Translations under genes and position numbers: made by a program | DNA from: an uncultured Acidobacteriaceae bacterium | Lineage (GTDB): Bacteria; Acidobacteriota; Terriglobia; Terriglobales; Acidobacteriaceae | Length of the DNA stretch: 64,000 bases | Assembly: GCA_963729555.1 (NCBI GenBank) | Contig: CAVSOH010000010.1 | Location: 1,860 to 65,859 of the forward strand | Direction of reading: 5' to 3' | The notes under the pieces: generated by a model | Seen by the model: only the letters and a program-made list of their open reading frames with translations | What the model was told of the DNA's origin: nothing | The model's database searches: none | Shown here: positions 1 through 64,000 of the stretch, piece by piece | How positions within the stretch are numbered: the first letter of the stretch is position 1 | Layout of the letters: each line of letters starts with the position of its first letter

Positions 1-1007
1 GCTCCGGCGAGTGTGGTGACGAAGGTCTGCGGGTCGACGGTGTGGTTGGTGGTGGGCTCGCCGGTTGCGGAGGGCAGGGGCTTGCCGGGTTCGTCGTTGG
101 GCAGGGGGAGGATTTTGGTTTCGATGTTGAAGCGGACTTTGGCGGCGTTGGCGGCGCGCTCGGCTGCGTGGGGCTGCGATTTGCCGGGGCCTTTGCGGTA
201 GTAGTCGACGTAGAAGGCGGTGAAGCGGAAGAGCTGCTCCACGTAGGTGGGGACGTAGGGGTTGATGAGGTGCTCGTGCGCGGCGAAGGCTACGGATACG
301 GGCGAGAGGGCGAGGTCGTTCTTCTGGTCTGGGAACTGGGTGTGGAGCTTATCGCAGATGAAGGTGCGCTGAGCGTCGGTGCTGGAGATGTCGCGGAGGT
401 AGACGCGGTTTTCGAGAGTGTAGGGGGAGCCGTCGGCGCGGCGGCAGGACTGCGGGTTGTAGAACTGGTCGTGCCAGATGAGCGATACGTGGTCAGTGGT
501 GACGCCGGTGTCGGTCTCGAGGGTGGTGCTGAGCTGGTCGAGGCCGGACTCGAAGGAGGGCAGGGTGTTTTCGGGGCGCAGGCCGCGGCCTCCACGGTGT
601 GCGGAGATGTCGAAGGTGCTGAAGTAGGCGGCGTCGGCGGGGTGGGCTGCGGCTTCTTCTTTGACGACGGCGCGGAGGAGGTCGGGACGGTCGGAGATGA
701 TGCCGTCGACGCGGAGGTTGATGAGGGCGCGCATCTTTTCGGGGTCGTTGGTGGTCCAGGGGACGACCTGGAAGCCGGCTTGACGGAGCTGAGCGACGTT
801 GACCGGAGGATTGGCGCTGAGGAGGGTCGCGTCGACGGGCGAGAGGACCGGGGTAGGGGCACCGTGGGCTTTGGCGTGGTCGCGGGCGGCGGTCATGAGG
901 CCGAGGTAGGGATTGGTGGGCATGGTGTTGGCCTGTTGGGCAGTGGCGATGCCGGTGAGGACGACAAGAGCTGCAGCGGTGCGGGTCCCGAAAGAAATGA
1001 TTGACAT
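1..1007 (-). CDS. Glycerophosphodiester phosphodiesterase (GDPD) family protein, secreted; 3' end runs off the window
   Basis: Not in the ORF track because it has no stop inside the window. Manual translation from ATG 1007: MSIISFGTRTAAALVVLTGIATAQQ (signal peptide-like) ... VVPWTTND ... VDGIISDRPD ... FDISAHRGGRGLRPENTLPSFESGL ... RFNIETK, which are GDPD motifs. Confidence 0.85.
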   Translation of the reverse strand, partial: MSIISFGTRTAAALVVLTGIATAQQANTMPTNPYLGLMTAARDHAKAHGAPTPVLSPVDATLLSANPPVNVAQLRQAGFQVVPWTTNDPEKMRALINLRVDGIISDRPDLLRAVVKEEAAAHPADAAYFSTFDISAHRGGRGLRPENTLPSFESGLDQLSTTLETDTGVTTDHVSLIWHDQFYNPQSCRRADGSPYTLENRVYLRDISSTDAQRTFICDKLHTQFPDQKNDLALSPVSVAFAAHEHLINPYVPTYVEQLFRFTAFYVDYYRKGPGKSQPHAAERAANAAKVRFNIETKILPLPNDEPGKPLPSATGEPTTNHTVDPQTFVTTLAG

Positions 1008-1057
1008 GAGGGCCGATGATAGTGAGTCAGCGTTGCATTGTTGTGAATCTGCCTGGG

Positions 1058-1963
1058 TTAAGGGATTGGTTGGAGGACTGTGGCTAGTCTTCCGTGTGCG
1101 GCCAGGAGTTTGGCTTCGGCGGCTGAGCGGCTGAGCGAGAGCTTCTGCATGACGATGGCGGTTTTGACGGAGCCGGCTTGTTCGAGCAGGTGCGCGGCGG
1201 TGGGCTGGTCTACTCCGGTGGCTGCGGCGATGATGCGCTGGGCGCGGTCGACGAGTTTGGCATTGGTGGGTTGAACGTTGACCATGAGGTTGCTGTAGAC
1301 GGCTCCGGCTTTGATCATTATGCCGGTGCTCAGCATGTTGAGGACGAGCTTGGTGGCGGTTCCAGCTTTGAGGCGCGTGCTGCCGGTGAGGACTTCGGGG
1401 CCGGTGACGGGAGCGATGGCGATGTCGGAGACGGCCGCCATCTGCGAGTTGGGGACGCAGGTGAGGGAGATGGTGAGGGCACCGACAGAACGGGCGTGGG
1501 CGAGTGCGCCGAGAACGTAGGGGGTGCGTCCGCTGGCGGCGATGCCGACGAGGGTGTCCTGCGGGGTGAAGTCGGCTGCGATGAGGTCACGGCTTCCCTG
1601 CTCGGGCGAGTCTTCGGAGCGCTCGCTGGAGGTGCGGAGGGCGGAGTCTCCACCGGCGATGATGCCTCGCACGAGTGTGGGCGGGACGGAGAAGGTAGGT
1701 GGGCACTCAGAGGCGTCGAGTACGCCGAGGCGGCCGCTGGTGCCGGCTCCCATGTAGAAGAGGCGGCCTCCCTGTTCGAGGCGGGCGGCGATGGCGTCGA
1801 CGGCTTTGGCGATGTGGGGGAGTTCGGCGGCTACGGCTGCGGCGACTGTGGCGTCGGCTTCGTTGATGATGCGGAGCATGTCGAGGGTGGGGAGTTGGTC
1901 GATGTGCTCGGAGGCAGGGTTGCGGGCTTCGGTGGGGAGCGTGGCGAGATCCATGTGCTCCAT
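1058..1963 (-). CDS. murQ: N-acetylmuramic acid 6-phosphate etherase
   Basis: TEARNP, GAGTSGRLGVLDASECPPTF, GPEVLTGSTRLKAGTATKLVLNM. Confidence 0.95.
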   Translation of the reverse strand: MEHMDLATLPTEARNPASEHIDQLPTLDMLRIINEADATVAAAVAAELPHIAKAVDAIAARLEQGGRLFYMGAGTSGRLGVLDASECPPTFSVPPTLVRGIIAGGDSALRTSSERSEDSPEQGSRDLIAADFTPQDTLVGIAASGRTPYVLGALAHARSVGALTISLTCVPNSQMAAVSDIAIAPVTGPEVLTGSTRLKAGTATKLVLNMLSTGIMIKAGAVYSNLMVNVQPTNAKLVDRAQRIIAAATGVDQPTAAHLLEQAGSVKTAIVMQKLSLSRSAAEAKLLAAHGRLATVLQPIP

Positions 1964-2026
1964 GATGGAGGATGGAGGGTGCTGGCGGCAATTCGGGGTG
2001 TGGATTGCCGCCGCGGAGCATTCGCT

Positions 2027-2470
2027 TTAGCGAGAGGTGATCTCGACCGGAACAGCTGATTTTGAAGTGGCGATGGCCCCGCAGAGGCAGAGAGCAATCA
2101 AGACCTCGGTGATCACCGGTGGCGGGAAGAAGTACGTCCAGGAGACCTGGGCGAAGGCAAGATAGGTCACCGTGAACGTTGTGAGGATTGGGCGGAGGCG
2201 GAGAGCGTCTGTCTTTGCCAATGAGGCAAGCTGCCAAAAGACTATGGCCTCGGCCGTCAGAAAGTTACTGACGGCGAGGCCCATGCCCATGTAGAAGTCC
2301 CAAAAGCTGCGGGTCGCTCCCATGACTGGAAACGTGGTTGACTTCATCACGGACACGACCGCCTGTTGGGCGCCTGGGGCTGGTGTGCCGAAGACGCCTC
2401 CGATGGTGTGAAGCGCGGCGTGAATAAAGGTCAGGACGGATGCGATGCGGAGGAAGATAACGGGCTTCAT
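2027..2470 (-). CDS. Small integral membrane protein (LIC_13387-like)
   Basis: MKPVIFLRIASVLTFIHAALHTIG..., four hydrophobic segments; ATG overlaps the stop of the SRPBCC gene (ATGA). The ORF track's extension to 2857 is an artefact. Confidence 0.7.
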   Translation of the reverse strand: MKPVIFLRIASVLTFIHAALHTIGGVFGTPAPGAQQAVVSVMKSTTFPVMGATRSFWDFYMGMGLAVSNFLTAEAIVFWQLASLAKTDALRLRPILTTFTVTYLAFAQVSWTYFFPPPVITEVLIALCLCGAIATSKSAVPVEITSR

Positions 2471-2958
2471 GCCTGAGCCTCCCGAGTGGCTGCTTTGGCG
2501 AACTCTGAAAGGGTGCGGGTCCAGGCGTCCGGGGTGTCCAGCATCTCGCGGAGCTTCTCGTAGCCTTCGCCGTGGCGCTCGATTGCACTGTGCTCTAGTT
2601 CGACGAGCGTGGCGGAAGGGCCTTCTTCCGTGAAGCGGATATGGACTTCGCTGGCTTTGGCGAGGTCGGGATTGAACTTCCAGTCCGGGCCGAGGTGCCA
2701 GGAGAAGGTGACACGATGCGGAGGCTCCCATGCGAGGATGTGGCCCCAGTTGCAGTCGTTTCCCTCGGCGTCGCGCTCGTACCAGCGGCCGCCTTTGCGC
2801 GGTTCGACGATGATGCTTTGGAATGGCTTGTCGCCGATGTGGTGTTCGGCGGGCCACCAGGTCTCCATCTGCTCGACGAAGACAGAGAAGGCGCGTTCGA
2901 TGGGAACGGGAACGCGCACGCTTTTATTGACGACGGCTGGTTCGACGATGTTTGCCAT
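2467..2958 (-). CDS. SRPBCC/AHSA1 (START-like) domain protein
   Basis: VRVPVPIERAFSVF...WWP...EPRKGGRWYE...WEPPHRVTFSW...TLVELEH. Confidence 0.9.
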   Translation of the reverse strand: MANIVEPAVVNKSVRVPVPIERAFSVFVEQMETWWPAEHHIGDKPFQSIIVEPRKGGRWYERDAEGNDCNWGHILAWEPPHRVTFSWHLGPDWKFNPDLAKASEVHIRFTEEGPSATLVELEHSAIERHGEGYEKLREMLDTPDAWTRTLSEFAKAATREAQA

Positions 2959-3292
2959 GCTTTACTTCCCCTTTCTGCGATGCGGCATTTTGAGAGGTGA
3001 CAGAGGCTTGAAACGCGCTCATGGCCTTGTCCCAGACCTGGTCGAAGTGCGCACGGAGGCGAGCGACTCCTTCGGGATCTAACTGGTAAAGGCGGCGGGT
3101 TCCGGTCTTCCTGTCGGTGACAAGGCCGGCGTCCTTGAGCACGCGCAGGTGCTGGGAGACTGCCGGGCGGCTGACGGGAAAGGTCTCTGCGAGTTCGTGA
3201 ACGGCCATGGGCCCGTTGGCGAGTCTCTGGAAGATGGCCATGCGGGTGGCATCGCCAAGGGCGTCGAGGCCGGCTTGTAGGTAAGCGTCCAC
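2924..3292 (-). CDS. ArsR/SmtB family transcriptional regulator
   Basis: ALGDATRMAIF...VHELA...VSRPAVSQHLRVLKDAGLV...GTRRLYQL; first gene of an ArsR-SRPBCC-membrane protein operon. Confidence 0.92.
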   Translation of the reverse strand: MDAYLQAGLDALGDATRMAIFQRLANGPMAVHELAETFPVSRPAVSQHLRVLKDAGLVTDRKTGTRRLYQLDPEGVARLRAHFDQVWDKAMSAFQASVTSQNAASQKGEVKHGKHRRTSRRQ

Positions 3293-3331
3293 TTACGGTA
3301 AGTGATAGCTTACGGATAAGGAATCTGTCAA
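3281..3331 (-). promoter_or_regulatory. Promoter plus tandem palindromic operator of the ArsR operon
   Basis: GTAAG-N6-CTTAC at 3281-3296 and 3298-3313; TTGACA (-35, minus strand) at 3326-3331 with TATCAC 18 nt downstream. Confidence 0.7.
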
Positions 3332-3362
3332 TAGCGAATTTTTCTCAAAGCCATTCTCGAAA

Positions 3363-4511
3363 TTAGCCGGGATTCTGCTGTGTCCTGAGGAACCGCTGGA
3401 ATCGCCTTCGTCTCCGCCACACAAGTAACCAGATGATTGCGATAAGAATCGCAGCAGCAAAATAGGGAAGATGGGCAACCAGCCATATTGCTCTTCGGAT
3501 CCGTGCCCTAAGCTGTGTGGCTTTTCGGATCGACTCTGCTGAGATCTCGACCGGTTGGTTCCAGTTCATCGTCCTGAGGCGAGGCAGAAATCCCTGGTGA
3601 ACGCAGCCTGCCAGGTTGTAGACACCTACCACGTGTGAGAAATGGTTGGCAACGATCAGGTCGCGCGAAAATTCCTCCCAATTCAGCGGTGCAAATCGGG
3701 GTGCTGCATTGGAGCCGCTGGTGATGCCGACCGCGATGGCCTGTGCATCCGGGCCATAGACCCAGATCAACGCTGAGTCGAGCCGCTTGTTGAAGCTGGT
3801 GTAGATCATGAGGACTTCGCGATCGCCTCTGACATCGACGATGCCGGCAAGCCGTTCCAACAGAGTGGAACGTATGCTTCGTGCGTCGGCGATAAATGGA
3901 AACTGATAGGTCTCGACCGGATACCCATGGGCTTGAATCTCGTGGATGAGTGAGGCGTAGGATTCCCTGGCGCGTCGAACGCGGTCGATGTCGAAGTAGC
4001 GCTTGATGAGCGTCCACGCCAGACGCGATTTGCTGCTTCGCAATGCGGCGAACTCCTGGATGTTCGGTTCTATGTCCAGTCCTACGCCAGCCCATCGCAG
4101 ATCGTAGGTGCTGGTCCATGTTCGAAAGTCTGCAAAGCGCGTTGCTGCTTCCGGGGCGTTGCTGGCATTCAGGTAATAGCCCTGCTCAGCCGGGAGCGCA
4201 AGCCACGCAGTTACAGGAATGCCAGCGCTGTTCAGTTGACGGACAATGCGAGCACGGTCCGGGCTAAGATCCGGAAGCGCCAGCGCGATGCCTGCATTCA
4301 AGGCTTTGAGATCGGGGATTACATCCGGTTGAGAGAACAGAGTTTCCAGTTCACTAGTGGAGCCATCGCAGGCAAATACCAGATACGGAGGACCGCCTCC
4401 ATTTCCACCCGTGACGTGGATGCCCGGTGACCCGGTGCTTGTTCCCTGGGCGTATCCGCCAATCGAGATAGACAGGACGGCGATTGCCGCGAGTGAGAGC
4501 CAGGAAGTCAT
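3363..4511 (-). CDS. Hypothetical exported protein with C-terminal membrane anchor (possible glycoside hydrolase-like barrel)
   Basis: N-terminal signal peptide, WAGVGLDIEP motif, C-terminal hydrophobic helix followed by RRRRR. Confidence 0.7.
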   Translation of the reverse strand: MTSWLSLAAIAVLSISIGGYAQGTSTGSPGIHVTGGNGGGPPYLVFACDGSTSELETLFSQPDVIPDLKALNAGIALALPDLSPDRARIVRQLNSAGIPVTAWLALPAEQGYYLNASNAPEAATRFADFRTWTSTYDLRWAGVGLDIEPNIQEFAALRSSKSRLAWTLIKRYFDIDRVRRARESYASLIHEIQAHGYPVETYQFPFIADARSIRSTLLERLAGIVDVRGDREVLMIYTSFNKRLDSALIWVYGPDAQAIAVGITSGSNAAPRFAPLNWEEFSRDLIVANHFSHVVGVYNLAGCVHQGFLPRLRTMNWNQPVEISAESIRKATQLRARIRRAIWLVAHLPYFAAAILIAIIWLLVWRRRRRFQRFLRTQQNPG

Positions 4512-4702
4512 ACGCCAGACACTCCACTTCGAGGACCGAAGCGCGAAGGTGTTCCCTCATCTTCAGGTTATGCCATTGCTGACCTGACGGGTGATATGAA
4601 ATCCGTTGTAGGCCCGGGCGAACGGAAGCGACTGTATCGTAAGGGCTGGCATCCTACGGATTAGAGAATCAGGAATTTCGGCGGCCACCTTTTACATTGA
4701 TT

Positions 4703-5767
4703 ATGAGCCCTTCACGCTACGCGCTTTCTGCTGCAGTCGTCGCGGTTGTGCTCTTCCTTGTCTGGCTTGTTTGGCCTGCGCGTACAAACAGCGACGCTTC
4801 AAACCCGCCAACGACCAGTGAGTCGCCTGCGTCGGCACCAAGCGTGGCGGTCGCTCATGACGATGGAGTGACGACGGTCTACGCGCATAACCTGAGGCTG
4901 CGCAAAGGGCCGGACTTTCGCATCTACGTCCGTTGGATTCGCGGCCAGATGCTGCGCACTCGAAAGGGCGATGAGCCTTCGCTTGATGATCCAGAGTCGT
5001 TTGTCTTCCTTATTCAGAAGGGTGTTATTCACGCGAATCTCGGCGACATCGGCACCTTCCTCAACACGAACATGCCTGGATCTCCACTCAAGAAGATCGC
5101 CGTGACGGGAGACGGAGATCAGCTCAGAATCAGCGGCACTTTGCATAAGCTGTTGGTGCCGCTGCCTGTCGAGATGGTCAGCACGATCTCGGCCATGCCG
5201 GATGGGCGCGTTCATCTGCACATTACTAAGATTGGCGTGCTGAGGGTGCCGGTGAAAGGGTTGATGCGCGGGCTTCATCTGGATATCAAGGACATCGTGG
5301 GTTCCACGCCTGTGTCGGGTGTCGAGGTGTCGGGCAACGATCTTTATCTGGATACGACGAAGCTGCTGCCGCCACCCCACATTCGTGGCCTGCTGACCAG
5401 TATTACGGTGGCAACGCCCGATCTTGTGCTGGTTTACGGCAATGCTCCGAATGACGAGACGAAGCTTGCGGAGTGGCATAATTTTCTGCGGTTCGAGGGC
5501 GGCACGGTCGATTTCGGCAAGCTGACTATGCACCGTGCGGATCTGACTCTTATCGATGCGTCGGACGATCCATGGTTTGATCTTGATCTGGTCAATTATC
5601 AGGCCCAGCTCGTTAATGGTGTCAGCCGGATGACGCCAGAGGCCGGGCTCGAGATCTTCATGCCGGACCTCAACGACCAAAATAAGTCGGTTAAAAAGAT
5701 TCCTCTGGATTGGCTTAAGGATCGTAACCGCTCGCTGCCGCAGGGTGTTCCGATGCCGGCCAAGTAG
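4703..5767 (+). CDS. Hypothetical membrane-anchored protein
   Basis: Long ORF with typical codon use and an N-terminal TM helix (AVVAVVLFLVWLVWP); ATG at 4703. Confidence 0.75.
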   Translation: MSPSRYALSAAVVAVVLFLVWLVWPARTNSDASNPPTTSESPASAPSVAVAHDDGVTTVYAHNLRLRKGPDFRIYVRWIRGQMLRTRKGDEPSLDDPESFVFLIQKGVIHANLGDIGTFLNTNMPGSPLKKIAVTGDGDQLRISGTLHKLLVPLPVEMVSTISAMPDGRVHLHITKIGVLRVPVKGLMRGLHLDIKDIVGSTPVSGVEVSGNDLYLDTTKLLPPPHIRGLLTSITVATPDLVLVYGNAPNDETKLAEWHNFLRFEGGTVDFGKLTMHRADLTLIDASDDPWFDLDLVNYQAQLVNGVSRMTPEAGLEIFMPDLNDQNKSVKKIPLDWLKDRNRSLPQGVPMPAK

Positions 5768-5782
5768 CAGAGACTTGGAACG

Positions 5783-7054
5783 CTAGTTCTTCAGCAGCTC
5801 CTCGAGGTTGGGGTTGAGGTCTTTTTTTGTTGTCTTCGCGGGAGTGAGTTCGACGTTCAGTCCGGTTACGTCGCTGTCGGTCACGATGACGGACTGCTTG
5901 CCATCTTGGTAGCTGCGCAGCGTGTTAGTCGACTCAACAGTTATGAAAGCTGTCGGTTTTTTCGTCGAGGGCTCGGTGTCGGCTGCATTGGTGACGAGTA
6001 GGTCATAGGTGCCGGGGGGAACGAATGTCACCGTGAAGTTGCCGTGGGCATCGACTCCGGTCCCTCGTGAAAAGTCCTTATCAAGCTTGTCTTCGAGCAC
6101 CACTAGCCCTGTGTTGAGACCGTGATGGTCCTCGGCTGAAGCGATACGGCCGCTGACGGAGTGCAGGCCTCCGAGTTTGATGGTCACCTCTTCGTCGCCG
6201 CGGTCTTCCGCGGTACGCAGGGTCACGGGCTTCGCGCCGGCCTGATGAAATGCGGCGGGGGCGAAGACGATGAGCGGGGAATCCATCATTTTGCTCATGT
6301 TCATGACGCCGTTCGTCATCGCGAACTGCATGTGGGTCTGCAATATTGCCTTGATGAGATAGTCCCCGGGGACCAACCCCGAGATGCGAAAGTGGCCCAG
6401 GTCGTCGGTGATCGACATCGTACCGCTGCCGCTGCCATTGAGGTTCATTGACAGCATTGCGAACTCTGGCGGAATAGCAGTCTCTTTGGTCTTCGCAGAG
6501 ATAACCGTAACTGTGACTTGCGTAGCCGGGCTACCGTCGTCCCATACGACCTTGCCGGAGATCGCAGCTCCGCGATTGACGAGGAGATCGGCCCGGATCG
6601 AGCGGTCGGCGATGACATGCACCATCGGAGTGTCGGGGATCGACTTGCGGGGATCGGCACCGGCATCGATGGCCGCCCGCACGATATTTCCCGACTGCAC
6701 GTATCCCGGGACGGAGGCGAAGACGTAATAATCTCCCGGAGTCACATTGGTTGCTTCAAAGCTGCCGTCGATGTCGGTCTGGGTCTGCACCATGTTGCCC
6801 TCTGTGTACGACTTCAGCGCGGCCCTGATCTGGGCGGCATCGGGTTTGGCGTTGGGATCGGCGTTCGCCGGCGGTGTGATCTCTGCGGGCACGCCTAGGA
6901 GCATCACGTGAGCGAACCTTGCGGGACGCTGCGTGTCGCTGCATGTGACGTGGCCAGTGACGGTGCCACCGGGCGATGCAGGCGCGGGCTGTTGCGCCAG
7001 AGAGGGGCAGGCGAGCAGAACGAGAATCAGGGCGCGAATCCTGAAGGGTCGCAT
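5783..7054 (-). CDS. Secreted protein with carboxypeptidase regulatory-like (Ig/transthyretin-like) repeats
   Basis: MRPFRIRALILVLLACPSLAQQ signal peptide; repeated GTVTGHV / GAAISGKV / HSVSGRI ... TDxxGxF ... PGDY units. Confidence 0.8.
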   Translation of the reverse strand: MRPFRIRALILVLLACPSLAQQPAPASPGGTVTGHVTCSDTQRPARFAHVMLLGVPAEITPPANADPNAKPDAAQIRAALKSYTEGNMVQTQTDIDGSFEATNVTPGDYYVFASVPGYVQSGNIVRAAIDAGADPRKSIPDTPMVHVIADRSIRADLLVNRGAAISGKVVWDDGSPATQVTVTVISAKTKETAIPPEFAMLSMNLNGSGSGTMSITDDLGHFRISGLVPGDYLIKAILQTHMQFAMTNGVMNMSKMMDSPLIVFAPAAFHQAGAKPVTLRTAEDRGDEEVTIKLGGLHSVSGRIASAEDHHGLNTGLVVLEDKLDKDFSRGTGVDAHGNFTVTFVPPGTYDLLVTNAADTEPSTKKPTAFITVESTNTLRSYQDGKQSVIVTDSDVTGLNVELTPAKTTKKDLNPNLEELLKN

Positions 7055-7140
7055 CGGCCAAGTATCGGATTGGATTTTTGGAGGAGCAAGAGAAAAATTG
7101 CCACTAGCGAAAGGCTTCGCGTTCCCGAAGCGAGGAATGG

Positions 7141-8133
7141 TTATGGGACGATGACTACGGCTCCGTCTGCGGTCTCCTGCTTTACGGCGTGGACGGCTTC
7201 GTTGGCCTGCGCGAGGGGGAAGGTTTTGATGCGAGGTTTGAGGCCGATCTCTCCGGCGAGCTTGAGGAAGTCGCGGGCGTCGGCGCGGGTCATGTTGGCT
7301 ACGCTGCGGATCTGGCGCTCGCCCCAGAGAAGCTTGTCGTAGTCGAAGGCGGGCATCTGGTCGAGGTGGATGGCGTTGATGGCTACGACTCCCCCTTTGC
7401 GCAGGCTGGAGAGCGCGCTGACGACGACGGCTCCGCTGGGAGCGAAGGTGATGGCGCGGTCGAGTTCGACGGGAGGGCTCTGCTGGTCGGTGCCGACCCA
7501 GGTTGCGCCGAGTGCGGTGGCTGCGGCGCGGTGAGCTTCGCCGCGAGTAGAGACGTAGACCTCGCAACCCCAGTGACGGAGGACTTCGATCGTGAGACTG
7601 GCGGAGGAGCCGAAGCCGAAGAGGCCGACGCGTTCGCGGGGTTTGACTCCGGCTACGCGGAGGCTGCGGAATCCGATGATACCGGCGCAGAGCAGGGGGG
7701 CGACATGGGCGTCGTCGAGCGTGGTAGGGAGGGGGAAGGTGAATCCGGCGCGGACGAGGACGTATTCAGCGTAGCCTCCATCGACGGTGTAGCCGGTAAA
7801 GATGGGGTTGTCGCAGAGGTTCTCTTCGCCACGGAGGCAGTACGGGCAGATGCCGTCGGTTCCGCCGACCCAGGAGACGCCGACGCGCGCGCCTGCTGGA
7901 AGTGCCGGTGAGCCGCCTTCGACGACCTCGCCGACGATCTGGTGGCCGGGGATGAGATGGGGCCGGATGGGCGGGAGGTCGCCCTCGATGATGTGCAGAT
8001 CGGTACGGCAGACTCCGCAGGCCAGTACGCGGAGGAGGACGTATCCGGGGATGAGCTTGGGCCGGGGGACGTCCTCGACGGTGAGAACGGGTGGGGCTGT
8101 GCGGCGGAAAGAGTTGAAGACAGCGACCTTCAC
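7141..8133 (-). CDS. Zinc-binding alcohol dehydrogenase (MDR family, AdhP-like)
   Basis: CGVCRTDLH, GHQIVG, structural Zn segment GICPYCLRGEENLC, APLLCAGIIG; GTG start at 8133 preceded by GAGGAG. Confidence 0.9.
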   Translation of the reverse strand: MKVAVFNSFRRTAPPVLTVEDVPRPKLIPGYVLLRVLACGVCRTDLHIIEGDLPPIRPHLIPGHQIVGEVVEGGSPALPAGARVGVSWVGGTDGICPYCLRGEENLCDNPIFTGYTVDGGYAEYVLVRAGFTFPLPTTLDDAHVAPLLCAGIIGFRSLRVAGVKPRERVGLFGFGSSASLTIEVLRHWGCEVYVSTRGEAHRAAATALGATWVGTDQQSPPVELDRAITFAPSGAVVVSALSSLRKGGVVAINAIHLDQMPAFDYDKLLWGERQIRSVANMTRADARDFLKLAGEIGLKPRIKTFPLAQANEAVHAVKQETADGAVVIVP

Positions 8134-8227
8134 GGGTCTCCTCGACAGATGTGAGCGTTGCCAACAGTTGCTGGTTGCTTCGATGCACAAGCGATGGTGG
8201 ACGTACCGGGCTCTCTGAAAAAGTAGT

Positions 8228-9690: not shown

Positions 9691-9821
9691 GGGGTTCTCC
9701 AGTGGGAGAGTTTACGCGAGATTTGGCCGGGCGCGACGATTTTAGGGTGTTTGGAGCCGTAAAATAGAGAGGATTGCGGAAAATCTGAACGGCGCATGGC
9801 GCAAAGGACGAAACGAGCGGA

Positions 9822-10755: not shown

Positions 10756-10785
10756 CCAGCCGAAGCATGCGGTTTCGGTGAAATT

Positions 10786-10816
10786 AAGGCCGCGTGAGCA
10801 GGATTCACGCGGCTTT
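10786..10816 (+). terminator. Intrinsic terminator hairpin
   Basis: AAGGCCGCGTGA-gcaggat-TCACGCGGCTTT. Confidence 0.65.
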
Positions 10817-50696: not shown

Positions 50697-50705
50697 AATC
50701 CGATT

Positions 50706-56795: not shown

Positions 56796-56813
56796 GCCAA
56801 TCGCGGATCTCAC

Positions 56814-56842
56814 GGCAAGCCTATTAGTCTTGCCGATCTATT
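56814..56842 (+). terminator. Candidate terminator after purF
   Basis: CGGCAAG-cctattagt-CTTGCCG. Confidence 0.45.
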
Positions 56843-57190
56843 TGTGTCGACTTGCTAAACTGGATATAGAGAAAAAGAACAGTCCCGTCAAAAACGGGGC
56901 TGTTTCTCGTTAACACATACAATTGCCGCGCGGCAGGAAGCCGCGTCTGCCTTAGCCATTTTTGATAGCGCAGACGTAAAGGTGTCACTATGCTGGGTAG
57001 CACCATTCTCTTCCGTTTTATCCGGCCCTTCGCGTTTCATAATTTCCCGTTCTACTCGCGAGATGCTTAGCAGAACAGACGTGCCATGCCAGATGAGAAC
57101 AGCGGCGCAGCACCACCCGGAAATCCCAATAGCAATCCTCTTCCAGTTGCCCAATCTTCCCAGCCAATTCCAGACCCAATATAGGAGAGC

Positions 57191-57830
57191 ATGATGGGAA
57201 AAAATAGCCAAAGCAACTCTACGAAAAATGGAGATGATTCCAGTGAGCTTGCCAAAGAAGTTCATTGGCTTCAACACGCTACCTTCTGGAGTCAAGTCGG
57301 ACTGTAATCGGTATTTTGGCTCTGGTAATTACTACTGCCAGTTGAAGGCTACCCAGAGTGCTATCGCCTTAACGCGCACCCAGTTTACAAAAGAGCAACG
57401 ACCCTACGTTTGGTAGACGGCGAAAACAACTATTCCACCAACTTTCTACATTAACCCGAAAGACCCAAGCTCTGGTCTGGTGACTTGGGACTGGCACATG
57501 ACCAATTACGGTAAAACTCCGGCCAATAACATATTTTTTACTCAAGAAATCAAGTTGGGGAACGAAGGTTATGTCACTAGTTATGGGGAAAACGGAAAAG
57601 ATATTGGAAGTCCTGAAGCTCCAGGCGGGGACACCTTTGATACCGTTGTCTCCAGACCGATAAAGAAGTCCGAATTTGACAGATTGTTGACGATGAACGA
57701 TGGGATTTCGATCCGTATTGTTATCTGGTACTCGGACGCGGACGGAACGACTTACGAATCTGGTATTTGCCTGAGCCGCACAAATGCTGGTTCCATTACC
57801 TACTGCAAAGAAGGCAACTACATACACTAA
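57191..57830 (+). pseudogene. Decayed AT-rich membrane-anchored hypothetical gene
   Basis: Reconstructed as HWLQHATFWSQVGL / VIGILALVI / YYCQLKATQ...QRPYVW * TAKTT...NYGKTPA, with -1 shifts near 57304 and 57330 and an in-frame TAG at 57414-57416. Confidence 0.65.
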
Positions 57831-57965
57831 AAAAGCTACCTAACCTCGGCATAGAGCTTCGGCAGGATTCGAGTTGGGTTACTGTAGTTAGTTATTACCT
57901 TTGCATGCTTATAGGGGTGAGGGTGCCCCGCTTACCCGCTGAGTGCGAAGTGTAGTGGAAAGCGC

Positions 57966-58466
57966 TTAGGGGAGGGCGATGCCCATGAAGAGGTAGTCGC
58001 CGCCGCCGGGCCAGTCGGCTTTGTAACCGTGTTGGCGGATGAGGGTTCCCAGCTGCGCGTAGTGGCGGATGCTGTGGAACATCGCGTGGAAGAAGATTGT
58101 TTTGCGGGAGGCGCTGGCGGGGCCGTAGGTGCGGGTGATGAAGTCGATAATTTGGTCCCAGTCGAGGTCGGCGGCGAGGGATTGATGGTAGATGTCTAAG
58201 GCGCGATCGTGGGTGGCGTAGATGGCGTCTACGGAGCCGAAGGGGACTTGGTCGAAGTTGGTTTCGGGGAGGCGGGCGATGCGCTCGGCCCAGCGGAGTT
58301 CGACGGCGACGATGTGCTGGAGGACCTGGGCAACGGTGACGGAGTTGGCTATGTCACAGGAAATAGAGAGGATATCGGGGTTGTCAGACAGGAGTTTGCG
58401 CCAGTTGTTGGAGGTCGTTTCGAACCATTTCAGGGTTTCCCTGGCAGTGAGGACGGGTTCGCTCAT
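57966..58466 (-). CDS. DinB/YfiT-like (DUF664-type) four-helix protein
   Basis: VAQVLQHIVAVELRW...FHAMFHSIRHYAQLGTLIRQHG. Confidence 0.85.
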   Translation of the reverse strand: MSEPVLTARETLKWFETTSNNWRKLLSDNPDILSISCDIANSVTVAQVLQHIVAVELRWAERIARLPETNFDQVPFGSVDAIYATHDRALDIYHQSLAADLDWDQIIDFITRTYGPASASRKTIFFHAMFHSIRHYAQLGTLIRQHGYKADWPGGGDYLFMGIALP

Positions 58467-58481
58467 GTGGCTCCTTTTCAG

Positions 58482-59750
58482 TTAGTTGCGGATGGCTCTG
58501 TGGCCTATGTCGCGGCGGTATTGCATATTTTCGAAGGAGATTTTTTGGAGCTGGTTGTAGGCCTTTTCCAGTGAATTTCGCAGGTTATCTGCGTGGGCGG
58601 TGATGGTTAGAACGCGGCCTCCTGCGGTTAGCAAGCGGCCATCTTTCAACGCTGTGCCGGAGTGGAAGACGACTACCGAGGGGTCGGCGGGGGCGGCGAG
58701 GCCTTCGATGGGGAGGCCGGAGGTGTATTGGCCGGGGTAGCCTCCGCTGGCAGCGATGACGCAGGCGCTGGCTCCGGGGAGCATTTTGATGTGGAGTCGG
58801 TCGGCGGTGCCGTCGATGGAGGCGTTGAAGAGATCGAGGATGTCGGTTTCGAGGCGGAGGAGGATGGCCTGGGTCTCGGGGTCGCCGAAGCGGGTGTTGA
58901 ACTCGAGGACCATGGGGCCGCGAGGGGTCATCATGAGGCCGATGAAGAGGATTCCGCGGAAGGGATTGCCTTCGGCGGCCATGCCGTCGACGACCTTCTG
59001 GGCTACGTTGTCGATGATCCAGCGGGTGAGTTCGGGGGAGGCGAGGGAGTCGGTGGAGTAGGCGCCCATGCCGCCGGTGTTGGGGCCGGTGTCGCCTTCG
59101 CCGACGCGCTTGTGATCCTGGGCAGCTGCGATGGGGATGGCGTGGGTGCCGTCGCAGAGGGCGAAGAAGGAGAGCTCTTCGCCGGTGAGGAACTCTTCGA
59201 GGACGATCTCAGTGTCAGCGGTGCCGAGGAGGGTGCCGGAGAAGATCTCGGCGGCGGTGGTGAGGGCTTCGGCGTGGGTGTCGCAGATGACGACGCCTTT
59301 GCCGGCGGCGAGGCCGGAGGCTTTTACCACTACGGGTGTCGCAAAGCGGGGGAGTTGCTCGCGGACTTCGTCGAGGGAGGTGCAGAGAGCGTAGGCGGCG
59401 GTGGGGATGTCGTGGTGGCGCATGAAGTCCTTGGCGAAGGCTTTGCTGGACTCGAGGCGGGCGGCTGCCTGGGTGGGGCCGAAGACGCGGAAGCCGCGGG
59501 CGGCAAGCTCGTCGACGATGCCGAGGGCAAGAGGGACTTCGGGGCCGATGACGGTGAGGGCGGGGTTCTCGATGGCGACGATGTTGATGAGGGCGTGGAG
59601 ATTGCTGACGTCGACGGGGATGCAGCGGGCGATTTGAGCGATGCCGCCGTTGCCGGGGGCGGCGATGACTTCAGTGACTGCCGGGGATTTGCGGAGGGAC
59701 CAGACGAGTGCGTGCTCGCGGCCACCGCCGCCGATTACTAAAACCTTCAT
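58482..59750 (-). CDS. purD: Phosphoribosylamine--glycine ligase
   Basis: GGGGREHAL, APGNGG, ESSKAFAK, KASGLAAGKGV, QDHKR..EGDTGPNTGGMGAY, EFNTRFGDPE. Confidence 0.97.
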   Translation of the reverse strand: MKVLVIGGGGREHALVWSLRKSPAVTEVIAAPGNGGIAQIARCIPVDVSNLHALINIVAIENPALTVIGPEVPLALGIVDELAARGFRVFGPTQAAARLESSKAFAKDFMRHHDIPTAAYALCTSLDEVREQLPRFATPVVVKASGLAAGKGVVICDTHAEALTTAAEIFSGTLLGTADTEIVLEEFLTGEELSFFALCDGTHAIPIAAAQDHKRVGEGDTGPNTGGMGAYSTDSLASPELTRWIIDNVAQKVVDGMAAEGNPFRGILFIGLMMTPRGPMVLEFNTRFGDPETQAILLRLETDILDLFNASIDGTADRLHIKMLPGASACVIAASGGYPGQYTSGLPIEGLAAPADPSVVVFHSGTALKDGRLLTAGGRVLTITAHADNLRNSLEKAYNQLQKISFENMQYRRDIGHRAIRN

Positions 59751-59767
59751 AGGCTTTCAGCGTAGCA

Positions 59768-62206
59768 TTACTCATTGCGGAGAGCGATGACGGGATCGAC
59801 GCTCGCCGACCGCCGTGCCGGCACGATCGACGCAACAACAGCGGCGAACAGCAAACTAAACGCAGCAAAGACCAGCGAAAGCGACAGCCCTGTATTCATC
59901 GCCGCGAACGCATGGATCAGTACGCGCTGTGCAACAAAGGTGAGCACAAATCCCGCCAGTATGCCCGCACCGATCAGCACGAGAGACTCTTGCAGGATGA
60001 GCGAAACGACCTGCCACCGTTGCGCGCCAAGCGTCATACGAATACCGATCTCCGCCGTACGCTGCGCTGCGGTGAAGCTCAACAATCCGTAGATGCCAAT
60101 TGCCGCCAACAATAAAGCGAGTCCGCCGAAAAGCGTCAGCAACCACACCATCAGGTGTCTTGCCGCCAGCGAATCGTTCACAAATCGATCGAGCGTCTCG
60201 ACGCCGTAGACAGCCTCAGACGAATCTACCGCGCGCACGGCCTCTATCAGCGGTGTCCGCATGGCATCGGCACTCGTCTTCGTCCGCACGACGAAGACTG
60301 CTTCGCCGATGGGCTGTTGCGCCATCGGCCGATAGATCACTCCCTTGTTCTCTTCCACTTCCAACGAATCACGCCTCACATGACCGATGACGCCGACGAT
60401 CTCTACCCGCAGCGAGTTCCTGCCAAATCGCACATGCTGTCCTATCGCACTTCGGCCCGGCCAGTAAGCCTTAGCGAGCAAGTCATCGATCACAGCGACC
60501 GGCGGACTTCCAATCCTGTCTTCTTCGCTGAACCATCGTCCCTGCATCAGCGGAATCTGCATCGCCGCAAGATATCCGGAGGTGGCCCAGCTTCTGTCGC
60601 TGTGCGGCCCCGGATCATCCGGTGACGCGGGGGGTCGCTCTTCGATCCCAAAACTCGCCGATGGATATTGCATGCTGCCAAATGGCAGCGGATAGACTGC
60701 CGCTGCCGCCACAACACCCGGCTGTTCGTTCAAACGGGAGGTCACGTCATGAATGAAGTTCGCCTGCTTCAAATCCTGATTGCGATAGTTGGTCGCATCG
60801 AGCGTTACTTTGCCGGTCAGCACGGAGTCGCTCTTGAACCCTGGGTCGACCGTCTGCAACTTCCTCAGGCTTGCGAGAAATAATCCGCTCCCGGCAACCA
60901 GCAGAAATGCCAACGCAACCTCTGTGCACACAAGAACGTTCCGGAAGCGTTGCCGTCCGGCGCCCGCCGTCGCGCTCTTGCTGTATTCGGTCAGTCGCAG
61001 AGACTTATGGGTCCGCACAAGCTGGACAATCGGTGCCAGCCCCGCCAAAAATGCAGCGAGCAGGCCGAAGCCAGCGGCTGCAGCTACGACCCTCAAATCC
61101 GTGTGGACGGTAAAACCGGTCGCCAGATCGTGAGGAATCGCAAGGAGGAGCAACTTGCCAAGGAATGGTCCAGCAACGACACCAATCAGCGTCGCAGTAC
61201 CCGCAAGCAACGCGGTTTCCAGAACGAACTGCATCGCAAGCTGGCGCAACGATGCGCCCAGCGCCGTCCGTATCGCCAGTTCCCGCATCCGCGTCGAGGC
61301 CCTTGCCAGCATCAGCCCCGAGATATTGGTGCAGGCGATCAATAGAATCATCGCAACGACTGCAAACAGCGCGAACAACGGCTTACGCAGATCTCCTGCC
61401 GCATCTTCAGTCCAGGGTTGAGCAGACATTGCCCACCCTGAGCTGAGAGCGTAGCTGCCTGTACCCTCGCGCCGAATCTCTTCCAACCTTTTCTGTTCGA
61501 GACCGGCATTGAGTTGCGCTACAGTCACCCCGGGCTTGAGCCGTACGACGCTGTTATAGAACTCGTTGAAGCGCTGGTTCGGGGCGAACGCGGTTGGTGG
61601 AAGTCCCAGAGGTGTCCAAAGCTCCGCACCCCGCGGCCAGGCGAAGTCGCTGCGCATCACGCCAATCACGCGGTACGCTTTGTTATCCAACAACAGCTTC
61701 TTGTCGATTGCATCGTGCTGGCCGCCGAACATCCGCTGCCACGCAGCGTAGCTCAGTACGATCACGCGGTCGGCGCCGCTTTGATCTTCTTCCGGCAGAA
61801 ACGTGCGGCCAAGAATTGGCTCCGCTCCAAACACCTGAAACCACTGCCAGGTCACCAGGCCTGCTTGCAGATGCTGAGTCCGTCCATTAAAGGTGGCATT
61901 GAAGCTGGCCGACTGGACCATCGCTGCAGTGTCCACGAGGCTGTGCATCGACTGCGCATCTGCAAAATCTGGCGCGGAGATCCCGATGCTCGGCAGATTC
62001 AGTTGGGTGTAGTGCGAGTGGAAAGAGGCGACTCGTTCCGTGTCCTGAACACCGGATGGGTGTAGAAGAACCGCCTGAATCACGCTGAAGATCGCTGTGT
62101 TTGCGCCAACGCCCAGAGCGAGGGTCAGGATGGTCACAATCGTGAAGGTGGGGGCCCGGAAGAGCTGCCGTATCGCATATCGCAAGTTTTCAGGCACAGT
62201 TTGCAC
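59768..62206 (-). CDS. Duplicated MacB/FtsX-type ABC permease (ADOP family), no linked ATPase
   Basis: LRYAIRQL..APTFT...LALGVGANTAIFS; LLIACTN...RELAIRTALGA; EIGIRMTLGAQ; ASVDPVIALRNE. Confidence 0.92.
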   Translation of the reverse strand: MQTVPENLRYAIRQLFRAPTFTIVTILTLALGVGANTAIFSVIQAVLLHPSGVQDTERVASFHSHYTQLNLPSIGISAPDFADAQSMHSLVDTAAMVQSASFNATFNGRTQHLQAGLVTWQWFQVFGAEPILGRTFLPEEDQSGADRVIVLSYAAWQRMFGGQHDAIDKKLLLDNKAYRVIGVMRSDFAWPRGAELWTPLGLPPTAFAPNQRFNEFYNSVVRLKPGVTVAQLNAGLEQKRLEEIRREGTGSYALSSGWAMSAQPWTEDAAGDLRKPLFALFAVVAMILLIACTNISGLMLARASTRMRELAIRTALGASLRQLAMQFVLETALLAGTATLIGVVAGPFLGKLLLLAIPHDLATGFTVHTDLRVVAAAAGFGLLAAFLAGLAPIVQLVRTHKSLRLTEYSKSATAGAGRQRFRNVLVCTEVALAFLLVAGSGLFLASLRKLQTVDPGFKSDSVLTGKVTLDATNYRNQDLKQANFIHDVTSRLNEQPGVVAAAAVYPLPFGSMQYPSASFGIEERPPASPDDPGPHSDRSWATSGYLAAMQIPLMQGRWFSEEDRIGSPPVAVIDDLLAKAYWPGRSAIGQHVRFGRNSLRVEIVGVIGHVRRDSLEVEENKGVIYRPMAQQPIGEAVFVVRTKTSADAMRTPLIEAVRAVDSSEAVYGVETLDRFVNDSLAARHLMVWLLTLFGGLALLLAAIGIYGLLSFTAAQRTAEIGIRMTLGAQRWQVVSLILQESLVLIGAGILAGFVLTFVAQRVLIHAFAAMNTGLSLSLVFAAFSLLFAAVVASIVPARRSASVDPVIALRNE

Positions 62207-62224
62207 TCCTTACTGCTCCACTCA

Positions 62225-62250
62225 TACGCAAGAGGAACACAGCTTGTTCA
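62225..62250 (-). promoter_or_regulatory. Candidate ECF sigma promoter of the ADOP permease
   Basis: TGAACA-N16-CGTA on the minus strand, 18 nt before the GTG. Confidence 0.45.
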
Positions 62251-62310
62251 CCCTATGTCGAATGTGCTGAATCGGCTGACGATGGAGCGCTGGGCGTCAA
62301 GTGAAATCTG

Positions 62311-63279
62311 TCATACGGTTATGACCACTTTTCCGCGGGCGTGACCTTCTTCCAGGTAGCGGATGGCTTCGGGGAGTTCACTCAAGCTGTAATGCCTGTC
62401 GATAACCGGGGTTACCTTTCCGGTCTCCATGAGATTTTGCAGGATGGTCAGGTCTTCTTTGGTTGATTTCGCTAGAAGTCCGGTCAGCTTCCGGCTACTG
62501 AATTGTGACCACACGAGCGCTTTGATTCCGCTAGCCAGACCCATCTTCCATCGGCCGCTTGGTCCTCCGGCCATGACGCAGATTCCTTTTGGGGATAAGA
62601 CTCGCCTGCGGGCTGACAATGAATGGTTTCCGACGGCGTCGAAAATCAGGTCGTAACGTTGTTTGCTTTTGGTGAAGTCTTCCTGGGTGTAATCGATGAC
62701 CCGATCTGCACCGATGGATCGGACCATGTCTGCGTTTCTCGTGCTGCACACGCCGGTTACCTCTGCGCCGAATGATTTGGCGATCTGCACGGCGAATGTG
62801 CCGATGCCTCCCGACGCGCCGTTGACCAAGACCTTGTGTCCCGGCTGAATCTTTCCCTTGTCGCGAAGTCCCTGCAAGGCGGTAAATGCCGCTATAGGGA
62901 CGGCAGCCGCTTGCTCGAACGTTACGTTAGCTGGCTTGATGACCAGATTTGATTCGGAGGTACACACGTACTCGGCGAAGGCTCCACGGCATGTGCCGAA
63001 GACCTCGTCGCCCGGTTCGAACTGCGTTATGTTTCTGCCGACCGCTTCAATCTGGCCGGCCACATCCACGCCTAGTCGTGGGTTCTTTGGTTTGCTTAGT
63101 CCGGTCATTACTATGCGGACGATGTACGGCGTGCCTCTCATGAAGTGCCAGTCCAGTGGATTGAGGGAGGCTGCGCGGACTTTTATCAGAACTTCATTGT
63201 CTGCGGCGGTTGGCTTTTCAATTTCTTCCAATCGAAGAACGTCGGGTGAACCGTAGTCGTGATAAACGATGGCTTTCAT
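62311..63279 (-). CDS. NAD(P)-dependent MDR oxidoreductase (quinone oxidoreductase-like, no catalytic Zn)
   Basis: MKAIVYHDYGSPDVL, ASLNPLDW, NGASGGIGTFAVQIAK, GHARGKVVI. Confidence 0.9.
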   Translation of the reverse strand: MKAIVYHDYGSPDVLRLEEIEKPTAADNEVLIKVRAASLNPLDWHFMRGTPYIVRIVMTGLSKPKNPRLGVDVAGQIEAVGRNITQFEPGDEVFGTCRGAFAEYVCTSESNLVIKPANVTFEQAAAVPIAAFTALQGLRDKGKIQPGHKVLVNGASGGIGTFAVQIAKSFGAEVTGVCSTRNADMVRSIGADRVIDYTQEDFTKSKQRYDLIFDAVGNHSLSARRRVLSPKGICVMAGGPSGRWKMGLASGIKALVWSQFSSRKLTGLLAKSTKEDLTILQNLMETGKVTPVIDRHYSLSELPEAIRYLEEGHARGKVVITV

Positions 63280-63442
63280 CGATGTATTCACCAAACGGCA
63301 CAAGCAGTCCAAAGGTCCATTGATCCCACGAGGACAAGCTATACGGGATAATTTGGGAACGCAATGACAGGCTGAAACGTACCCACTCAAAGTAAAGACT
63401 TTCAGCATAATCGAGTAGTGGGCCGCTCCTGGAGGTTATGGA

Positions 63443-63967
63443 GTGATAGAACAGATGCGAGAAGTGTCGCCGGGGGGCAAGGCCAGGACTGCTGGTGTCT
63501 TTTATTTGCTCGCCGTGCTGACGGCCGTATCAGGCGAGTCCTTCCTTCGCGGCAGGTTGAGTTACGCGGCGGGCCTCATCGCGGTTGCGTGCTTTGTCGT
63601 TGTGACGCTGGTGCTTTACGGCATATTCAAACCGGTGAATGGGCGCCTCGCTTCGCTTGCAGCGGCTTCCGGGCTCGTGGGACTCAGCTTTGAGGCTCTT
63701 CGATGGAATCCCTGGGGAGTGGACGTCGCTATGGCGTTTCATGGGCTCTATTGCCTGCTGATCGGCTACCTCGTTTTCAGATCGACCTTTCTACCGCGAA
63801 TTCTGGGCGTGCTGATGGCGTTTGCCGGTTTGGCATGGATGATGACTCTTTTGTCACAGAGGCTTGTGGTCTGCGGTTTTCTCGGGGAAGGAGCGCTCAT
63901 GCTATGGCTGCTTGTGATGGGTGTGAATGTTCCACGCTGGAAGGAGCTTCCTGGTGGCTCCACTTGA
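63443..63967 (+). CDS. DUF4386-like membrane protein (short)
   Basis: ARTAGVFYLL...YGIFKPVN...LLIGYLVFRSTFLPRILGVLM...GEGALMLWLLVMGV. Confidence 0.75.
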   Translation: MIEQMREVSPGGKARTAGVFYLLAVLTAVSGESFLRGRLSYAAGLIAVACFVVVTLVLYGIFKPVNGRLASLAAASGLVGLSFEALRWNPWGVDVAMAFHGLYCLLIGYLVFRSTFLPRILGVLMAFAGLAWMMTLLSQRLVVCGFLGEGALMLWLLVMGVNVPRWKELPGGST

Positions 63968-64000
63968 AGCCTCGGCGGCGGTATGGAGATTCGGATGACG

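Follow-up and report, generated by a model that had tools for sequence, protein, structure and literature searches.

The 64,000-nt window analyzed here, a stretch of the genome of an uncultured Acidobacteriaceae bacterium (assembly GCA_963729555.1, contig CAVSOH010000010.1, positions 1,860 to 65,859), is divided into kilobase-scale domains in which the top strand is strongly enriched either in G and T or in C and A. Its genes were called by the frame signal of GC content at third codon positions (GC3), and the strands of the main genes were confirmed with NCBIfam and Pfam. The asymmetry was measured as GC skew in 1-kb steps, as the G/C and A/T skews of third codon positions (GC3 and AT3 skew), and by change points at third positions. 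Comparison loci of the relatives are designated by the letter L and a number. The domains, their boundaries and the genes on which the argument turns are arranged as follows.

1..14300, both strands: G+T-rich domain with a GDPD-like gene, murQ, an alcohol dehydrogenase, an amidohydrolase, an alpha-xylosidase-like gene and others; GC3 skew +0.28 to +0.70 in syntenic genes
1964..7140: weak-skew island in the first domain, a lineage-specific insertion; GC3 skew from +0.43 down to -0.37
14300..22900: terminus-type (+ to -) transition zone with rpoD, a small Cys-rich open reading frame (ORF), a Doc/Fic toxin, a MazE antitoxin, a 501-aa unknown gene, dnaG and a low-complexity ORF; GC3 skew within +/-0.2 except in one 81-codon ORF
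14689-16413, minus strand: rpoD
16611-16856: the 81-codon ORF; GC3 skew +0.32
16853-17248 and 17248-17475, minus strand: Doc/Fic toxin and MazE antitoxin, respectively
19130-21058, minus strand: dnaG
22953..47918, both strands: C+A-rich domain with a peptidase, a two-component system, an ABC transporter, dinB, a pccB-like gene, an M28 peptidase, a rhomboid gene, aspS, hisS and a gamma-carbonic-anhydrase-like (gamma-CA) gene; GC3 skew -0.37 to -0.72 in most syntenic genes
35540..40048: weak-skew island with an RcnB-like gene, an SbmA/BacA-type ABC transporter and an MscS-like channel; GC3 skew within +/-0.21
47919..52851: origin-type (- to +) shift zone, beginning at the divergent gamma-CA/rpsU intergenic region, with rpsU (ribosomal protein S21, 48038-48234), a zinc-ribbon gene, an insert bearing a repetitive extragenic palindromic (REP) element, rplU-rpmA, a PMT_2 membrane protein gene and dut
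52852..59750: second G+T-rich domain with purL and purF (plus strand), a spacer (56796-57965), a DinB-family gene and purD (minus strand); GC3 skews +0.31, +0.39, +0.72 and +0.77
59751..64000: sharp skew drop at the purD/ADOP intergenic region, then weak-skew DNA with an ADOP permease and a quinone oxidoreductase

Genes of both orientations are found throughout. The minus strand encodes murQ, rpoD, MazE/Doc, dnaG, dinB, aspS, hisS, the gamma-CA gene, the DinB-family gene, purD and the ADOP permease; the pccB-like carboxyltransferase, rpsU, rplU-rpmA, dut, purL and purF lie on the plus strand.

In 1-kb steps, the GC skew of the top strand ranges from +0.10 to +0.39 at 1-15 kb, is close to zero at 15-22 kb, falls to between -0.14 and -0.34 at 22-36 and 40-48 kb, returns to about zero at 36-40 and 48-53 kb, reaches +0.16 to +0.32 at 53-59.75 kb, except for a dip at 57 kb, and is weak past 59.77 kb. 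The major change points of third positions fall at 17.1, 23.2 and 52.9 kb, and the smaller ones at 1.9, 35.5, 57.97 and 59.80 kb. Hence, three skew states (positive, negative and near zero) are present, and the sign changes three or four times along the 64 kb. The initial annotation, made from the sequence alone, had described G-rich and C-rich domains from seven 60-nt counts of C and G, all of which proved exact. The pattern it reported stands; its two-state view does not, nor does the sharp switch that it placed between rpoD and dnaG, where a near-zero zone of about 9 kb is found, and the renewed C-richness that it noted past 59.75 kb amounts to a weak skew in non-syntenic DNA.

As had also been proposed, the signal is carried by third codon positions and is independent of gene orientation. 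At its strongest, GC3 skew attains +/-0.6-0.8 in genes of both strands, with the extremes in purD (+0.77) and dinB (-0.72). Pooled over the C-rich domain (22.9-47.9 kb), it equals -0.48 for plus-strand and -0.46 for minus-strand genes (z=-24 for each), the gene at 25613-26284 being weaker at -0.14. In the two G-rich domains, the pooled values are positive in both orientations (+0.20/+0.52 and +0.31/+0.75, z from 7 to 22; in the domain 1..14300, z is 7.3 for plus-strand and 21.6 for minus-strand genes). Intergenic DNA takes the sign of the domain surrounding it. Across genes, AT3 skew is anticorrelated with GC3 skew (r=-0.69, p=4e-8), so one strand is G+T-rich and the other C+A-rich: G and T prevail on the top strand at 1-14 and 53-59.75 kb, C and A at 23-48 kb. 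An excess of G over C and of T over A on one strand, with its mirror image on the other, is the signature of replication asymmetry, and it is seen here in both gene orientations and between genes. The domains are therefore real and far beyond chance. Transcription as the driver is ruled out, since half of the genes in the negative domain lie on the plus strand and half on the minus strand, with identical skew. The ribosomal-protein genes rpsU, rplU and rpmA, to which a codon-usage artefact is confined, were left out of all skew arguments. The gradient from purL to purD was also considered as a moving front, a reading that was rejected: purL skew is intrinsically lower in the relatives too, and the DNA at 48-52.9 kb is locally rearranged.

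Some of the departures from full-strength skew have a simpler origin. The weak-skew islands (2-7, 35.5-40, 56.8-57.9 and 59.8-64 kb) are, by comparison of gene order, lineage-specific insertions, best read as DNA that reached its present location recently. Genes without a homologue in any related locus covering their position (32425-33318, 35798-39738, 57480-57830 and 59768-64000) all have an absolute GC3 skew of at most 0.28, and the gene at 32425-33318 behaves in the same way as the 35540..40048 island. In the relatives, the islands are bridged: pccB adjoins the homologue of the gene at 40049 in L084, L142, L144, L161, L165, L166 and others, and murQ adjoins the homologues of the genes at 7141 or 9822 in L179, L198, L084 and L160. 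The purF/DinB-family spacer (56796-57965) is variable. None of the 93 related loci carrying purD has an ADOP homologue beside it, and the sharp boundary at 59.76 kb coincides with a synteny break. Thus, the DNA at 2-7, 32.4-33.3, 35.5-40, 57.5 and 59.8-64 kb is absent from the syntenic position and less skewed than the backbone (absolute GC3 skew mostly <=0.3).

The asymmetry itself is a trait of the Acidobacteriaceae (Edaphobacter/Tunturiibacter/Granulicella) and not a local oddity. Protein-anchored searches assign the window to this family, and its chromosome is Edaphobacter-like; exact searches with a 60-mer and with the purD, rpoD and 81-aa ORF proteins gave no match in the collections used. 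The coding-strand GC3 skew of purD orthologues from 80 genomes spans -0.72 to +0.83, and the purD-purF-purL-dut block, conserved in the relatives, is uniformly positive in some genomes and uniformly negative in others. At the same time, the corresponding loci of L009, L052, L065, L066, L076, L124, L130 and L241-L255, which include an Edaphobacter metagenome-assembled genome (MAG) and Granulicella rosea, are nearly free of skew for 10-20 kb, so the asymmetry is not equally strong in all lineages or regions. The larger scale was sampled at one to three loci of about 20 kb per contig. In four long contigs (CAVTVC, CAWCVD, CAWBTR and CAWIQU), the sign of the dnaG locus, located 0.8-1 Mb away, matches that of its side of the rpsU switch described below; this agreement concerns one distant locus, on one side, per contig, and is to be set against the three or four changes within the window. 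Several relatives are mosaic at the 100-kb scale, and in T. lichenicola (CP132944.1) the sign is positive at 2.71-2.73 Mb, negative at 2.845-2.858 Mb and positive again at 2.859-2.866 Mb. For Acidobacterium capsulatum, a low GC skew index (0.079) and a predicted dif site offset by 27% from the skew shift point have been published (Kono et al., PMC3025954 supplement); these figures fit a genome in which skew is not simply organized. No description of the present pattern was found in the literature searched, coverage of which is incomplete.

Misassembly, e.g., a chimera of contigs joined in arbitrary orientation, is also known to show up as skew reversals (Lu & Salzberg 2020, PMC7717575). This explanation is effectively refuted for the window. 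Its gene order and skew profile recur in L081/L165, L082/L166, L083/L324 and L089/L161, the MAG contigs L081/L165 and L082/L166 sharing 83-87% nucleotide identity with the window at 9-31 kb. The interval 42.6-56.8 kb is likewise present, at about 90% nucleotide identity, in the closest DNA found, the 6.15-Mb single contig of GCA_003945235.1 (RSDW01000001.1), where the rhomboid gene, aspS and purD follow each other in the same order as in the window. The same order and profile in independent assemblies exclude an assembly artefact.

A link between the domains and dispersed repeats, which the initial annotation had suggested in the form of a local mutational process, finds no support in a family-wide asymmetry or in the position of the repeats. 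Two families resembling REP elements or miniature inverted-repeat transposable elements (MITEs), both short and with GC-rich stem-loop cores, occur between genes.

28977-29017, 49161-49195 and 52162-52202 (the last inverted), intergenic: REP/MITE-like family B
30916-30975, 39935-39994 and 43930-43989, intergenic: second REP/MITE-like family

Five of these six copies lie inside domains, and only the copy at 52162-52202, in the PMT_2-dut spacer, is near a change point (52.9 kb); hence, the repeats are not associated with the switch points. A 30-nt inverted pair (40466-40495 and 50667-50696, 83% complementary), which contains TCCACAGAAATATTTC, resides in two spacers between convergent genes, the second copy in the breakpoint spacer of rplU-rpmA. 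Such repeats may help local rearrangement; the domains are not explained by them.

The boundary between rpoD and dnaG is the most informative one. The near-zero zone there lies within a sigmoid 20-25 kb long, with no sharp point. The window is collinear at 9-31 kb with L081/L082 (at the identity given above), with L083/L089 and with L087 (Tunturiibacter psychrotolerans). In eight Tunturiibacter-type genomes the block is uniform, with a GC3 skew of -0.4 to -0.8 in the orientation of dnaG, apart from the small homologue of the gene at 14304, which is close to zero. This collinearity with uniformly skewed genomes bears out the earlier suggestion that a simple inversion is not the cause. In the five sigmoid genomes (the window and four relatives), the per-gene values are almost identical and monotone: in the dnaG orientation, the gene at 30052 and dinB have about +0.6, the genes at 26961-28908 about +0.4, dnaG and rpoD about zero, and those past rpoD -0.3 to -0.55.

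Comparison of four-fold degenerate sites indicates how this state arose. Between the window and L087 or L125, four-fold identity in the flipped flank is only 0.19-0.20, below the 0.33 expected from composition; it equals 0.49 in the middle flank (L087 and L125), and 0.49 (L087) and 0.42 (L125, only 81 sites) in the rpoD-side flank. Amino-acid identities are similar on both flanks, and the flipped-flank genes scale like dnaG. Identity below the compositional expectation in collinear DNA shows that substitution produced the flip in place, with neither import nor a breakpoint involved here; one flank was rewritten in situ, the other left as it was. The five sigmoid genomes differ from each other by about 0.6-1.0 substitutions per four-fold site (an estimate based on identities of 0.48-0.71, where 0.31-0.37 would be expected by chance), and both flanks still bear strong, opposite skew; thus, neither flank is a decaying relic. 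A divergence of about 1.1 substitutions per site sufficed for the complete flip, and the rpoD-side flank, which had time to flip, did not. Among 32 species, the flank past rpoD is negative in 30 and positive in none, and the flank upstream of dnaG is negative in 17, near zero in 10 and positive in five. In genomes with dnaG 25-40 kb from rpsU, a sigmoid lies between pccB and rpoD; its position varies, and it always falls monotonically. A monotone polarity boundary that shifts between lineages in collinear DNA is what a zone of fork convergence would produce; an inversion would not.

Import of the 23-31 kb flank from a lineage of opposite skew would also create such a contrast, and alleles of opposite skew do exist in L137, L148, L155 and L140. 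The proteins of the flipped flank, however, are 59-83% identical to those of the Tunturiibacter type and 55-83% identical to those of the opposite-skew lineages, scaling like dnaG (79% vs. 73%), and the gradient is smooth, with no step. Introgression is accordingly considered very improbable.

A more serious competitor is a mosaic of rearrangements, in which an ordinary origin and terminus lie elsewhere, the domains are inverted or translocated blocks re-equilibrating to their new position, and the sigmoid stems from hidden flip-flop inversions or another history. Small-scale synteny is indeed highly fluid: rplU-rpmA occurs in both orientations, the 40664-43868 block is found on either side of the rpsU locus, and the purD block has many different neighbours. 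The sharp switches at 59.76 kb and in L002, L008, L035 and L051 are situated at synteny breaks, and the 4.4 Mb of related loci show a change of sign every 40-70 kb or so. Against this, a segment reversed by inversion should have abrupt edges and be uniform between them; within about one relaxation time, no inversion can turn one half of a collinear block over completely and leave its other half untouched. The edges near 50.5 and 59.76 kb are breakpoints, but the left edge, at 14-23 kb, lies within DNA collinear with L081-L083, L089 and L087, and the monotone sigmoid extends over about 20 kb in all five genomes. Nor does random rearrangement predict the complete lack of positive flanks past rpoD (0 of 32) or of positive-to-negative changes at rpsU (0 of 35, see below). 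The coincidence of switch points with synteny breaks, named by the initial annotation as evidence that would count against its own view, thus holds for several boundaries and for all islands, and fails for rpoD-dnaG. The mosaic is regarded as unlikely on the whole, with a chance that is nevertheless substantial.

The second boundary of interest starts at rpsU. Among 35 gamma-CA/rpsU loci with usable flanks, skew passes from negative to positive in 12, from negative to near zero in seven and from near zero to positive in two; it is positive on both sides in six, negative on both in four and near zero on both in four, and none goes from positive to negative. In the complete chromosomes CP132938.1 and CP132942.1, a sharp switch occurs between the gamma-CA gene and the S21 gene: aspS and hisS have about -0.45, and the values to the right of rpsU climb from about +0.1-0.2 in the zinc-ribbon gene to +0.5 to +0.78 within 4 kb, with the exception of one gene pair at -0.2/-0.3 in CP132942.1. 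The rpsU/hisS/aspS switch region is a candidate replication origin region because the reverse polarity is never seen there and the signs 0.8-1 Mb away match.

In the clade of the window, the switch is smeared over 48-52.9 kb by the inversion of rplU-rpmA (relative to L013, L030, L162 and L175), by the PMT_2 gene, homologues of which occur in only five related loci, and by a 528-bp REP-bearing insert (48969-49496) missing from the closest relative, L330. Among close relatives (L013, L030, L162, L175, L323 and L328), rplU-rpmA (49719-50409) is present in both orientations. Its codons are C-ending in either, and rpsU likewise keeps its own bias, so that in ribosomal-protein genes translational selection looks to override strand bias. 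In L329, an IS481-family element (14238-15189) lies between the PMT_2 gene and dut, within the zone of sign change. The spacer between rpsU and the zinc-ribbon (zf_Tbcl) gene (48235-48511; 277 nt, GC 0.62), similar in length in the relatives and with no Rfam match, may serve as a structured leader or encode a small RNA.

The genes usually sought beside an origin are elsewhere. In relatives where both are placed, dnaA is 0.2-0.8 Mb from the rpsU locus; in one distant relative (L045) it is 3 kb away. The rpmH-rnpA-yidC|dnaA-dnaN loci of five relatives are positive on both sides in two cases, negative to near zero in one, near zero to negative in one and weakly positive downstream in CP121195.1, i.e., an origin-type switch was seen at none of the five. 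Since the dnaA loci lack a switch and the rpsU loci have it, the recurrent origin-type shift point found in the family is at rpsU and not at dnaA; that rpsU is itself the origin is our inference. The order rpmH-rnpA-yidD-yidC-jag|dnaA...dnaN is conserved in L331-L334, L335 (CP121195.1) beginning at dnaA, and DnaA boxes of the E. coli type are scarce in the dnaA loci of L331 and L332. Searches with E. coli and Terracidiphilus-like DnaA queries returned only the close relatives of each query, and a scan of contigs found other Terriglobales with weak skew.

Taken together, these observations are best explained, at about even odds, by domains of replication direction, with an origin-type and a fork-convergence-type boundary only some 30 kb apart. 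A strand-asymmetric mutational bias would drive one strand towards G+T and its complement towards C+A at weakly constrained sites, and each full-strength domain would record the long-term direction of the fork. If the G-rich strand is the leading one, which we assume from general knowledge of nearly all bacteria, the DNA at 23-48 kb would be replicated leftward and that at 53-59.75 kb rightward, both by forks initiated at about 48-53 kb, near rpsU/gamma-CA. Forks arriving rightward from the far side would replicate 1-14 kb and meet the leftward ones in the rpoD-dnaG zone. The weak-skew islands would be recently arrived DNA still short of equilibrium; in the clade of the window, all three domains of full strength seem to have reached it. 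Fork direction as the source of the skew, a G-rich leading strand, rpsU as the origin and rpoD-dnaG as the convergence zone are inferences; the pattern, its spread through the family, the inserted state of the islands, the recurrence and constant polarity of the rpsU switch and the in-place rewriting of one flank are observed.

Several known systems bear on this picture. The leading strand is reportedly richer in G than in C and in T than in A, as described by Lobry in 1996 and later by others. Replication-associated GC and AT skews have been reviewed (PMC7717575). The window resembles them in the signature and in its effect on third codon positions and on DNA between genes, whichever strand is coding; in several relatives, the sign sampled 0.8-1 Mb from a shift point also agrees with that of its side. 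The window differs in magnitude (GC3 skew of 0.7-0.8, or a G:C ratio of about 7:1, the usual values being far lower), in showing three or four sign changes in 64 kb, and in having the shift point at rpsU-hisS-aspS instead of dnaA. Local skew reversals arise from inversions, and recently acquired DNA ameliorates; the 59.76-kb boundary and the islands, located at synteny breaks or insertions, conform to this, but rpoD-dnaG, a smooth sigmoid with no breakpoint and kept through about 0.6-1 substitutions per four-fold site, does not. Ectopic origins in E. coli leave forks arrested at Ter sites and make the two replication arms very unequal, and there are archaeal chromosomes with several origins. 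By analogy, boundaries that are not half a chromosome apart, sharp on the origin side and diffuse on the convergence side, may have a similar basis, although we know of no natural bacterial chromosome with such boundaries about 30 kb apart. Overall, the phenomenon corresponds to the known replication-type asymmetry, unusually strong and overlaid with insertions and local rearrangements; what goes beyond the ordinary is the shift point at rpsU-hisS-aspS and the long-lived, breakpoint-free polarity boundary about 30 kb from it.

A number of results weigh against replication-direction domains. Such a spacing of origin and convergence zone is unexpected for a chromosome replicated bidirectionally from a single origin. 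The window contains no DnaA-box cluster, no recognizable oriC and no dnaA gene, so the origin-type switch is not at an oriC beside dnaA: in the search for DnaA boxes (TTATCCACA with <=2 mismatches, and TCCACA cores) no significant cluster emerged, and the four TCCACA cores in the 47-48 kb bin (mean 0.44) are unconvincing. Likewise, the terminus-type switch has no dif site near it: sequences of the Koribacter/Solibacter type (at least 19 of 28 positions; taken from Kono et al. 2011, PMC3025954 supplement, and possibly different from the dif of Acidobacteriaceae) were found neither in the window nor at the syntenic place in the relatives, and searches of the window with the E. coli, B. subtilis, Vibrio and Haemophilus sequences gave nothing credible. 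Positive skew on both sides of rpsU in 6 of the 35 loci, and negative skew on both sides in 4 of the 35, do not agree with an origin there. In JANXYX010000001.1, the gene order is that of the window, yet moderate skews of the opposite signs flank rpsU, and the DNA 190 kb to the left of the dnaG block is negative; not every relative thus fits the simple picture, and the first of these two features is one that the rearrangement mosaic would accommodate. Finally, the polarity rests on the general knowledge mentioned above: rRNA operons, sought as a means to fix it, were present in none of the related loci examined.

Part of this evidence might equally be claimed for an asymmetry of mutation or repair that acts on whole domains independently of replication, through transcription, exposure in R-loops or domain-bound repair, with or without a role of repeats. 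The dnaA-rpmH loci devoid of an origin-type switch belong to strongly or moderately skewed relatives, both types of boundary occupy different places in collinear DNA across lineages, and searches for oriC and dif motifs at the boundaries were negative. Still, gene orientation is without effect throughout the 25-kb negative domain, so transcription cannot set the sign; the repeats do not map to the boundaries; and the G+T versus C+A signature with the sign agreement over 0.8-1 Mb is what replication asymmetry leads one to expect. To our knowledge, no such process has been described, and this explanation is deemed improbable.

Within replication-direction domains, the spacing of about 30 kb might be due to a fork trap with near-unidirectional replication or to a second initiation site; a non-replicative cause is the other candidate. 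A more specific proposal would be that in the Edaphobacter-like clade an initiation region and a stable convergence zone are 15-35 kb apart, replication being either near-unidirectional (one fork trapped, e.g., after inversion of a whole arm) or started at several sites, with the shift point at rpsU, up to about 0.8 Mb from dnaA. In this full form, the proposal is quite doubtful. The interpretation in the initial annotation is, overall, partly supported, and its underlying observation is confirmed.

A few other features of the window were noted. A perfect palindrome, TTATAACAATTGTTATAA, at about 17493-17510, just upstream of MazE/Doc, was considered as a dif site and rejected in favour of its being the operator of the adjacent MazE/Doc module, which it probably is. 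About 25 relatives carry homologous toxin and antitoxin genes, and similar palindromes of the TTATAAC type occur in L089 and L126. The ORF at 21218-22837 (539 aa, no family match), with a first-position GC of 0.77 and short tandem repeats of the CGTCAAC type, lies in the near-zero transition zone. Its DNA is conserved in L081-L083 and L087, and it was not detected by tblastn; it may encode a low-complexity protein or not be a gene. In the pccB-like ORF (33440-35539, 699 aa), the family match begins at residue 169, which points either to a true start downstream of the listed TTG or to an unusual N-terminal extension. Rfam gave no match and ARAGORN no tRNA in the window.

If skew does track fork direction in these bacteria, an abundant, slow-growing soil lineage, their genomes would hold an unusually sharp natural record of replication history, written in G:C ratios of up to about 7:1 at silent sites, which could serve to date insertions and rearrangements gene by gene. 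The layout of replication would then depart from the scheme of a dnaA-linked origin with two equal arms, and both skew-based prediction of origins and skew-based checks for misassembly would misfire on these genomes.

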